A stretch of DNA of 32,000 nt from Puniceicoccales bacterium (GTDB taxonomy: Bacteria > Verrucomicrobiota > Verrucomicrobiia > Opitutales > LL51): positions 69,327 through 101,326 of the forward strand of contig JAITBP010000007.1 in NCBI GenBank assembly GCA_031283585.1. Direction: 5' to 3'. Made by a program: the position numbers and the translations under genes. The notes under the pieces are model-generated. The model worked only from the letters and a program-made list of their open reading frames with translations, searched no databases and was not told where the DNA came from. Below are positions 26,376 through 28,799 of the stretch, piece by piece (positions within the stretch are counted from its first letter, which is position 1; each line of letters starts with the position of its first letter).

Positions 26376-27025
26376 ACAGCATCTCCTTCGATCCGACCAC
26401 CATAGCCATCGTGCTCACCACACTGACCATGGCACCGTTCGTGCTCATGTTGGTATCCTCCTTCGTAAAAATAGTAGTGGTCCTAACCCTCATAAGAAAT
26501 GCGCTTGGTGTACAACAAGTTCCTCCAAATATGGTACTTAACGGTATCGCCATAATGCTTACCATCTACATAATGTACCCCATCGTCCAGGAAACCTTCG
26601 AGATAACCAAAGGATTGGAATTCGATATGAACAATATAGCTACGCTAAAGGACCCTCTGGCAAAGGCTTGTGGGCCATTAAAGAAGTTTTTAAAAAAACA
26701 TACCAAGTCCCAGGGCCGAGCATTTTTTATGAGCACAGCAAAGGAAATCTGGCCCCAGGAAATGCAAACCGGACTGGAAGAAGGTAACCTAATCGTTCTT
26801 ATCCCGGCCTTCATCGTTTCAGAACTCACAGATGCCTTCCAGATCGGATTCCTACTCTACCTGCCATTCATTGCCATAGACATGATCGTCTCTAACATCT
26901 TGCTAGCCATGGGTATGATGATGGTCTCTCCGATGACAATCTCTCTGCCATTCAAACTTATGCTGTTCGTCCTGGTCGACGGCTGGACAAAAATGATCGA
27001 AGGTATTGTAAAAACCTACAGATAA
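26372..27025 (+). CDS. sctR: T3SS export-gate protein SctR (YscR/FliP family)
   Basis: 217 aa. SFVKIVVVLTLIRNALGVQQVPPNMVLNGIAIMLTIYIMYP matches the YscR-type signature (GVQQ.PPN). The size fits SctR rather than the longer, signal-peptide-bearing FliP. Confidence 0.9.
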   Translation: MNSISFDPTTIAIVLTTLTMAPFVLMLVSSFVKIVVVLTLIRNALGVQQVPPNMVLNGIAIMLTIYIMYPIVQETFEITKGLEFDMNNIATLKDPLAKACGPLKKFLKKHTKSQGRAFFMSTAKEIWPQEMQTGLEEGNLIVLIPAFIVSELTDAFQIGFLLYLPFIAIDMIVSNILLAMGMMMVSPMTISLPFKLMLFVLVDGWTKMIEGIVKTYR

Positions 27026-27350
27026 CCAGAAATAACCCAACTACGATCACTGGATAACTCCTTGAATATCAACCACATCGTTTACTGCCAAAACCCTGGT
27101 CAATAGTTAAAAGCCAGCCGCCAATGCACCGTCCAAATCCTAATGAACGAACCAAAATCTGGCATACACCGGTCAGACCGACCTCGACATAACCCTAGCC
27201 TATTACCGTACTGAAAAATATTTAACATGACAAAAATACCACTGCTACAGCAAGCTTCTCTCCCAATACCATTGGGTTGTCAACAAAAATCTATGATAAT
27301 CTCCGATCCTTCAGGTAAACAGGACCCAGCATTGGTTTGTTCCAGGGACA

Positions 27351-27418
27351 AAAAGACATAAAAAGATATATAAAGATATAAAAAGACACAAAAGACATAA
27401 AAGACATAAAAAACATCA
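27351..27418 (+). repeat. Seven phased A-tract units (AAAAGAYATA, 9-10 bp period)
   Basis: aaaagacata aaaagatata taaagatata aaaagacaca aaagacata aaagacata aaaaacatca, read directly. Helical phasing predicts intrinsic curvature. Confidence 0.9.
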
Positions 27419-27435
27419 AATAGAACCCGGTCAAG

Positions 27436-27552
27436 TTATTCACAATGACCTGTTAATAACCTGTGAATAGCCTGTGAATTAGTGTTAATAACCTGTAGTT
27501 GTTCACATTTGTTCACATACTATTCACATAGTTATACACAGGGTTATTCACA
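27436..27552. promoter_or_regulatory. Cluster of eight DnaA-box-like 9-mers (putative oriC DnaA assembly region)
   Basis: Compared with TTATNCACA. Perfect matches: 27436 TTATTCACA, 27532 TTATACACA and 27544 TTATTCACA. One mismatch: 27462 TGTGAATAG (rc), 27473 TGTGAATTA (rc), 27499 and 27509 TTGTTCACA, 27520 CTATTCACA. The last five are co-oriented at 10-12 bp spacing. Confidence 0.7.
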
Positions 27553-27596
27553 AAAATTTCCCTCTGGATCCCTGTAATATACTTACAAATTCATAC

Positions 27597-27753
27597 TTAT
27601 TAACATATTAACGGGCCCCCTACTACTACTACTATATAAATATAAATTATTAGTAGTATATATTAACGGTCACCAGAGGAAGCATATTTCCAGCGGCCAT
27701 CTAGCAAAATTATTTATTTATTTTCTTTATATATATTTTCATATAGTATAATT
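27597..27753. promoter_or_regulatory. Putative origin unwinding region: weak DnaA box, GC cluster, CTA x5 (3'-GAT-5' trios), AT-rich DNA
   Basis: TTATTAACA at 27597; GGGCCCCC at 27613-27620; CTA x5 at 27620-27634, followed by pure A/T triplets to 27652 and then GTA GTA TAT. In 27706-27753, 45 of 48 positions are A/T. ATATTAACGG direct repeat at 27605 and 27660. Confidence 0.6.
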
Positions 27754-27764
27754 CTCGACAGTTG

Positions 27765-28799
27765 ATGGTCGCTCTGATTTTTACCATATTGATTACTTTG
27801 TTATTATCAGGGATATGCTCGCTGCTTGAAGCGGTGATATTCAGTACGGATCAAGTTGAAGTAGAGGCACTTAAAAAGAAACATAGCCGGATCGGTCGAT
27901 GGCTTGAGGATAGTAAGGACAATATCGAGGAGACCAGTTCGGCGATCCTGATACTGAACACCGTAGCAAATACCTTTGGGGCTGTGGTCGCCGGAGGCAT
28001 GGCGTCAAGAATATTTGGCGAAGATAAACTGTGGTTGTTTTCTCTGGCGATGACCGTTGTCATATTGACCATTTCGGAAATACTCCCAAAAAACATCGGT
28101 ATAGCCTACCGGAGAAAACTACAAAGGATTGTGGTCTATCCGCTTAGGTTCATTCTGTTCATCATGTATCCGCTGTCAAAACTCTGTAGATTGATGGTGA
28201 GAATCCTGATACCACAGAAAAAAATGGCGAGTTACTCCGAACGAGACATACTTCTAATGACCGAAAAAGGTGTGCGGGACGGTACGCTTACGAAGATAGA
28301 AAGTCGAATGATAGCCAATGTGGTCAATATGGATAGCACCGAAGTGGCCCAGGTTATGACACCACTGGGTGATCTTACTTCCTACGATCAAAATAAAACG
28401 ATTCGTGATGTTTTTTCACTGGACAAGGATATTCCCATAGGCCGATTGCCTGTTTATGCCGAATATCCCGAGAATCTGGTGGGAATAGTTTTGCGCAGAA
28501 ACATACTTAAAGCCTTTGCCGATGGTGAGGTATCCAAACAGCTGAGAGAATTGATGCAAACACCGAAGGTCATTGATAGTGAAAGTCTTGTGGCCACAGC
28601 TCTCCACGAGTTCCTGACCGAGGCCTGTCAGCTTGCATTTGTAAAAAAAGAGAATAAAATAATCGGCATACTTACTTTGGATGATATTTTTGAGCATATA
28701 ACTGGCATAGAAATTGCTGAGAATGATGACGTTGAGGTAAGAAAAAGTGTTAAAAATGTTGCTAAACGGAAGCTGAAGTTCCAGAAACGGCGCAAATGA
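27765..28799 (+). CDS. CNNM/DUF21 transmembrane domain plus CBS-pair protein (TlyC/CorC-like putative divalent-cation transporter; no CorC_HlyC C-terminal domain seen)
   Basis: N-terminal multi-TM region with SEILPKNIG (DUF21 signature), followed by a CBS-pair-like region (VAQVMTPL, PVYAEYPENLVGIVLRRNIL, IIGILTLDDIFEHITG). TTG 27762 is also in frame. Confidence 0.8.
   Translation: MVALIFTILITLLLSGICSLLEAVIFSTDQVEVEALKKKHSRIGRWLEDSKDNIEETSSAILILNTVANTFGAVVAGGMASRIFGEDKLWLFSLAMTVVILTISEILPKNIGIAYRRKLQRIVVYPLRFILFIMYPLSKLCRLMVRILIPQKKMASYSERDILLMTEKGVRDGTLTKIESRMIANVVNMDSTEVAQVMTPLGDLTSYDQNKTIRDVFSLDKDIPIGRLPVYAEYPENLVGIVLRRNILKAFADGEVSKQLRELMQTPKVIDSESLVATALHEFLTEACQLAFVKKENKIIGILTLDDIFEHITGIEIAENDDVEVRKSVKNVAKRKLKFQKRRK

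Follow-up and report, generated by a model that had tools for sequence, protein, structure and literature searches.

Among described replication origins, the closest counterpart of the element studied here is the basal unwinding system (BUS) of Bacillus subtilis, which consists of DnaA boxes 6 and 7, a GC cluster, DnaA-trios and an AT-rich region. The rule for recognizing such a system specifies a DnaA box with at most two mismatches, a spacer of 0–16 bp and at least three DnaA-trios with a central A and the consensus 3'-GAT-5' (PMC8287927). In Escherichia coli, oriC (gidA-mioC) lies apart from dnaA, and local skew inversions are produced in chromosomes by inversion or translocation. Here we analyzed a stretch of 32,000 nucleotides (hereafter the window) from an uncultured, genome-reduced Puniceicoccales bacterium, in which a 736-bp gap downstream of the type III secretion system (T3SS) gene sctR carries a dense array of DnaA boxes. 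The window makes up the final 32 kb of contig C6 (69,327–101,326) of an assembly of 818 kb in 13 contigs (estimated completeness ~95%), labelled G000; coordinates are those of the window unless a contig or genome is named. Judged from its sequence, window 27350–27761 is probably the chromosomal oriC of this bacterium, and we infer that replication initiates there.

The candidate origin begins with helically phased A-tracts on the + strand (27350–27420; AAAAAGACAT repeated 7.4 times with a period of 10 by Tandem Repeats Finder, TRF). These are followed by a DnaA-box array (27436–27552) of ten 9-mers with at most one mismatch to TTATTCACA, arranged as one forward box, four reverse boxes at 11-bp spacing and five forward boxes, and then, after a gap of 45 bp, by a tandem pair of boxes on the + strand, TTATTAACA then TATTAACGG (27597–27614), which adjoins the candidate unwinding site and is present in a single copy in the genome by pattern search. 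A GC cluster, GGGCCCC, and five CTA repeats come next on the + strand (27613–27634), the latter giving five 3'-GAT-5' DnaA-trios on the bottom strand (27620–27634), and the gap ends in an AT-rich candidate unwinding region (27635–27761) with TATATATATATTTTC repeats at 27711–27750 (TRF). GC content is 0.31 over 27401–27800. Within 170 bp we counted 11 boxes with at most one mismatch to TTATTCACA, as against a maximum of two per 200 bp elsewhere in the assembly, and the same gap is also the top box cluster in the genome with the E. coli consensus. Elsewhere in the window, a lone perfect TTATTCACA box lies at 23111–23119 in the rplQ|PFK spacer, at a terminus-type skew change.

Read against the BUS rule, the box TTATTAACA at 27597–27605 has two mismatches to TTATCCACA and is separated by a 14-bp spacer, containing a weaker box and the GC cluster, from the five CTA repeats. 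In sequence, the locus resembles B. subtilis in its tandem boxes on the top strand, short GC cluster, CTA repeats and AT-rich DNA, and likewise has an upstream array of further boxes. It differs in its box consensus (TTATTCACA rather than TTATCCACA), in having five perfect consensus trios in a row and in not lying beside dnaA or dnaN. As in E. coli, the candidate origin sits between unrelated genes with dnaA elsewhere and only two boxes upstream of it; unlike in E. coli, the flanking genes differ even between sister genera of the family, and transcription on the left flank runs toward the origin over 35 kb. The dnaA gene is on contig C4 (80,123–81,523) in uniformly positive skew with no skew change, and the two boxes directly upstream of it (C4 79,852–80,006) probably serve autoregulation.

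An earlier note on this DNA had reported that GC skew changes polarity across the box cluster, based on five hand counts, all of which proved exact to the base (27061–27360, G45/C83; 26401–26700, G56/C73; 27781–28080, G82/C53; 24661–24960, G68/C63; 9361–9480, G40/C30). GC skew rises from −0.30 over 27061–27360 to +0.22 over 27781–28080 (Fisher test, left versus right, p = 4e-5), and a rise this large occurred in only 0.09% of 8,057 equally spaced pairs of 300-bp windows genome-wide. The cumulative G−C count has a local maximum at 24,758 and a local minimum at 27,756, where the AT-rich DNA ends and the CNNM gene starts, about 200 bp to the right of the box array. The note had further described the top strand as A-rich to the left and T-rich to the right; the former held (AT skew +0.15 to +0.48), while the latter did not (about 0 to +0.1). 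The peak in AT skew at 25.2–26.4 kb (+0.35 to +0.48) mostly reflects the amino-acid composition of one small open reading frame (ORF; 25390–25692) and of the N-terminal half of the SctQ-like protein, and GC skew at second codon positions is −0.4 to −0.6 there. The negative block, estimated in the note at 2–2.5 kb, measures 3.0 kb when all sites are counted and 4.4 kb when synonymous sites are used. It includes a C- and A-rich non-coding spacer of ~325 bp between sctR and the A-tracts (27026–27349; GC skew about −0.28, AT skew about +0.33) that is specific to this species; a second species of the genus (G001) has ~88 bp of AT-rich DNA in its place. Searches of the spacer with blastn and tblastx against G000, G001 and a sister-genus genome (G003) returned chance matches only, and an Rfam scan of 26800–27900 gave no match.

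We found that the switch also holds at synonymous sites. Pooled third-position GC skew, a calculation proposed in the earlier note, changes sign at the gap, from −0.189 for the genes at 23369–27025 to +0.139 for those at 27762–31392, and the flip is therefore not attributable to amino-acid content. To assign strands gene by gene we used a synonymous-codon classifier (log-likelihood ratio, LLR, per 100 codons) trained on the other twelve contigs, with held-out testing contig by contig and with crude gene calls (longest non-overlapping ORFs of at least 90 aa). Each of these twelve contigs has a uniform skew sign despite a nearly balanced gene orientation, and their skew is therefore replication-linked. 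On held-out contigs the classifier assigned 92% of leading and 85% of lagging genes correctly, the genome means being +3.25 for leading and −2.84 for lagging genes (third-position GC skew +0.099 and −0.146, respectively). The only other skew sign change near a contig end in the assembly, from positive to negative, is at C12 1–8,000, a candidate terminus region.

All five genes immediately left of the gap were lagging-like, with a pooled LLR of −4.2 (third-position GC skew −0.189, AT skew +0.172). In order along the + strand these are PFK (23369–24562; Pfam; LLR −1.9), an ORF at 24640–25377 (−3.3), the ORF at 25390–25692 (−5.8), a FliN/SctQ-like gene (25662–26375; Pfam; −4.3) and sctR (26372–27025; Pfam; −8.5). 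To the right, the genes at 27762–31392 are transcribed away from the candidate origin, also on the + strand, and comprise the CNNM/CBS gene (27762–28799; Pfam), a GspF-like gene (28796–30274; Pfam) and two small ORFs. Their LLRs are, in order, +2.3, −0.4, +4.9 and +5.6, such that three of four are leading-like. Thus, the codon usage of the T3SS genes and their neighbors, which the note had suggested comparing, differs on the two sides of the gap in the same sense as the skew.

Comparison with relatives argues that this pattern reflects ongoing replication. We compared 17 genomes of the family, among them the other two species of the genus (G001 and G002) and the closed sister-genus genome (G003; 878,461 bp); a SctR search likewise returned Puniceicoccales (Verrucomicrobiota) metagenome-assembled genomes (MAGs) as the closest relatives found. 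The order comM | tRNA-tuf...rplQ | PFK...sctR | boxes | CNNM is maintained over 69 kb in all three species of the genus. The island of lagging-like genes left of the boxes scored −4.2 in G000, −3.5 in G001 (−5.0 with a G001-trained model, where lagging genes average −4.6) and −4.3 in G002, and the right flank was leading in all three (+3.6 in both G001 and G002). Synonymous divergence (dS) between G000 and G001 is ~0.8–2.5, that is, saturated, and a compositional relic that predates the split should have decayed to roughly 40% of its strength or less. Since the island signal equals or exceeds the lagging mean in three species despite this saturation, it reflects the present mutational regime rather than a relic. 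The full-strength signal fits continuing leftward replication from the boxes, not an old inversion within a rightward-replicated region.

In the sister genus, PFK, sctQ and sctR lie on the leading strand, 110 kb away from the origin, with the same local order. Three island genes could be paired with orthologues there (PFK, 24640–25377 and the sctQ-like gene), and these orthologues bear a weak leading signature, indicating that the lagging signal in G000 is not intrinsic to the genes, and the shared local order indicates that the island genes were vertically inherited. As side observations on the secretion genes, sctS and sctT of G000 are located on another contig (C11 66,958–68,039; loci L065 and L066), apart from sctR, and in the sister genus, too, neither sctS nor sctT follows sctR (G003 571,445–572,092).

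We then asked how the module itself is distributed. The pattern TTATTNACATATTNACNNNCCCC, allowing at most two mismatches, matched in 11 of the 17 family genomes, with a single match in nine of those 11, and the reversed control pattern gave zero matches in G000 and the family genomes searched. The two matches in G001 are copies of a single element, present on both C29 and C17 because these contigs overlap by 70 bp; the contigs can be joined, and the break between them falls inside the CTA trio repeat. G008 and G011 carry one additional degenerate match each, and the match in G014 lacks an upstream box array. Ten of the aligned genomes, with G014 as the exception, have in common the box array, the tandem pair, CCCT, ACTACTA-type trios and then AT-rich DNA. 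In the closed genome G003, the motif is at 458,737, within 300 bp of the cumulative skew minimum (459,000; maximum 877,000) and beside the densest box cluster (458,751–458,900). By position and skew, the module appears to mark the origin where a whole chromosome is visible. Its flanks in G003 are an unnamed gene and a putative prfB, as opposed to sctR and CNNM in G000.

Two further observations concern the neighborhood of the module. Many MAG contigs of the family stop a few hundred bases or less past sctR (G001 C29/C17, G008 C17, G010 C50 and G016 C74; loci L081, L082 and L086); the sister-genus sctR is not at the origin, so contig breaks there have another cause. In addition, comM, gspF and CNNM are adjacent in G003 (825,129–829,061; gspF and CNNM on the opposite strand), and in the genus of G000 comM (C6 60,205–61,731) and CNNM-gspF (27762–30274, inverted) are split by the 35-kb segment of ribosomal genes, sct genes and oriC. 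Gene order between G003 and G000 is heavily scrambled, too much so for synteny to polarize the rearrangement.

Several observations weigh against an origin at the boxes. When ordinary skew is taken over all sites, the negative stretch covers 3 kb and is flanked by positive skew on both sides, which is the outcome that the earlier note had named as counting against its own reading. Cumulated over all sites, the skew of the contig reaches its minimum at C6 61,859, at the start of a ribosomal block 35 kb left of the boxes, and this more distant origin-type polarity change is much the larger of the two. The 13-contig assembly does not allow a whole-chromosome skew curve to be drawn, dnaA is not adjacent to the boxes, and ~10% of other intergenic regions reach a GC skew of |0.28|, placing the spacer next to sctR within the ordinary range. 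It is also very unusual for almost all ribosomal protein operons and rpoBC to be oriented head-on beside an origin. Finally, the ribosomal block of G000 is statistically closer to leading than to lagging (LLR +2.8; four-fold GC skew −0.016), with a mean of about +4.3 for its ribosomal protein genes, compared with about +1 for lagging ones elsewhere in the genome. This value is a genuine weakness of the argument for an origin at the boxes.

The block in question is a 31-kb run of + strand genes, tuf-nusG-rplKAJL-rpoBC-rpsLG-fusA-S10-spc-alpha (C6 62,175–92,398; ORFs and Pfam), of which the part within the window (1–23072) begins in rpoC and continues through the str, S10, spc and alpha operons. 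It is followed by PFK, by three or four T3SS genes of which sctR is the last, by the gap and by the right flank, and every supported gene in the window is on the + strand. All genes of the block are transcribed toward the candidate origin, and together with the island they form 35 kb (C6 62,175–96,351) in which every gene points toward it, including tuf, rpoBC, fusA, secY and ~30 ribosomal protein genes, an arrangement kept in G001 and G002. The classifier divided contig C6 into four zones: the minus strand is leading over 1–61.7 kb, the plus strand is leading-like from tuf to rplQ (62.2–92.4 kb; +2.8) and lagging-like over 92.7–96.4 kb (−4.2), and right of the gap it is leading-like again. 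The all-site GC skew of the block (+0.175) is partly trivial, because all of its genes are on one strand and their first codon positions are G-rich.

At synonymous sites, the signature of the block is intermediate between leading and lagging and differs from species to species. Its LLR is +2.8 in G000 (normalized about +0.85), +0.6 to +0.7 in G001 (normalized about +0.07) and +2.0 in G002 (normalized about +0.6), and its four-fold GC skew in G001 (−0.195) and G002 (−0.144) is close to lagging values. For reference, the truly leading block of G003 reaches 1.8 times the genome leading LLR, with a third-position GC skew of +0.216 versus +0.133 and a four-fold GC skew of +0.179 versus +0.110, and two ribosomal protein genes elsewhere on leading strands of G000 score +6.8 to +6.9. 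Confirmed lagging-strand ribosomal genes of G000 (rplT, rpsI and rplS), plus HU, score −1 to +1, and neighboring ORFs that are presumably rplM and rpsP reach about +2.7, while the lagging neighbors of these ribosomal protein genes are mostly at −3 to −5. Since lagging ribosomal genes stand above their neighbors, expression shifts the signal upward by roughly one normalized unit. These real ribosomal protein genes on lagging strands replaced protein conservation as a proxy for expression, which had almost no effect on the classifier. None of the three blocks comes near the level of a highly expressed block on a leading strand; G001 is where lagging, highly expressed genes are expected, and G000 is more leading.

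Together, these values suggest that the block was probably once on the leading strand and has since adjusted to a different degree in each species. As with local skew inversions described elsewhere, the composition of the 31-kb block disagrees with its position relative to the origin; what sets the present case apart is that the arrangement is old (three species, dS above 1), that the block is partly adjusted species by species and that there are no inverted repeats at its ends, where a search that included the origin gave matches of at most 13 bp, consistent with chance. A positional gradient across the block, as from a diffuse zone of meeting forks, was considered and dropped, as sliding windows vary by gene class with no trend.

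The points against an origin at the boxes are in large part those that would favor a true origin at the comM | tRNA-Thr-tuf junction (C6 ~61.9 kb). There, the ribosomal block would be co-directional with replication, PFK–sctR would be a small inversion and the boxes would be a DnaA-titrating or regulatory site. The contig skew minimum, the leading-like block of G000 and the rule that ribosomal operons are co-oriented with replication all agree with such an origin. However, at 61.7–62.2 kb we found no box cluster, trio run or other oriC feature; the island shows the lagging signature at full strength in each of the three species despite saturated dS, where an inversion that predates their split should be at 40% or less; and the block, neutral in G001, falls below the level expected of leading genes in each species. 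Moreover, the same BUS motif is at the G003 skew minimum, and an island ending exactly at the only oriC-like module of the genome would be a coincidence. We therefore regard an origin at the comM|tuf junction as unlikely.

Use of two initiation sites ~35 kb apart, one at 62 kb and one at the boxes, with forks meeting near the rplQ|PFK spacer, would account for a single contig having two polarity changes of the origin type and one of the terminus type, a pattern kept in three species with saturated dS. Yet the 62-kb site has no DnaA-box cluster or BUS, the signal within the block is heterogeneous by gene class with no gradient, and the neutral block of G001 fits lagging genes with expression bias; we consider two origins very improbable. 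Replication in one direction only, with a block to the leftward fork at rplQ|PFK, was rejected, as C6 1–61.7 kb has the minus strand leading. The earlier note had also raised a small inverted or imported segment as an explanation of the negative block, which our results do not support: the decay expected of an old inversion is not seen, and a horizontally imported T3SS fragment whose foreign composition mimics a skew flip, although suggested by an isolated group of sct genes without sctS or sctT and by locally unusual AT skew, is scarcely credible given that four of the five island genes (PFK to sctR) have sister-genus orthologues in the same local order (27–75% identity), that all but 25390–25692 are present in G001 and PFK and the next gene in G002, that island GC content and third-position GC content are ordinary with a codon signature matching the genome's own lagging genes, and that no mobile-element genes were seen among the window ORFs and no flanking repeats at the island borders.

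We thus return to an origin at the boxes, which is supported because the module is unique in the genome, because the same module is at the skew minimum of G003 and because the island signature is at full strength in three species. The origin call of the earlier note is most likely right, but on other grounds than those it gave, as all-site skew alone would misplace the origin by 35 kb. The standard cumulative skew minimum is moved this far to the left because the G-rich ribosomal block adjoins the origin.

A plausible sequence of events is as follows. DnaA would occupy the box array together with the tandem pair; from there it would spread over the neighboring 3'-GAT-5' trios and unwind the AT-rich stretch by the CNNM gene. 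Forks would leave both ways: the rightward fork would copy CNNM and gspF co-directionally, and the leftward fork would meet PFK–sctR head-on, such that the + strand island genes and the spacer would have become C- and A-rich on the top strand because the fork runs head-on through them. This origin signature would reach only 3–4.4 kb to the left, as the next 31 kb also point toward the origin yet have a G-rich coding strand. The G-richness of the block comes from its G-rich first codon positions, from expression-linked bias and, probably, from remnants of an earlier life on the leading strand, which an inversion or translocation would have ended before the radiation of the genus.

That skew switches at an origin is textbook knowledge, and in this respect the locus is an ordinary example from a new lineage. 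Its value is that oriC can now be placed in an uncultured, genome-reduced lineage of Puniceicoccales, and that a family-wide origin motif has been obtained, TTATTCAC(A/T/C)-TATTCACA-(N2-3)CCCT-ACT.... The locus is also a clear example of all-site cumulative skew pointing to the start of a ribosomal super-operon while synonymous sites and DnaA-trio architecture point to the right place. We think it probable, with less assurance than for the position of the origin itself, that the leftward fork meets ~35 kb of head-on transcription to its left, which takes in EF-Tu, rpoBC and almost all ribosomal protein operons, and that this layout has been stable in at least three species. If true, this would explain why skew-based origin finders would miss the origin by 35 kb, and the genus would offer a natural example of replication-transcription conflict being tolerated over the long term in the genes with the highest expression. 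Such a rare and apparently stable head-on placement of core genes by the origin could be used to study conflict tolerance in slow-growing symbionts.

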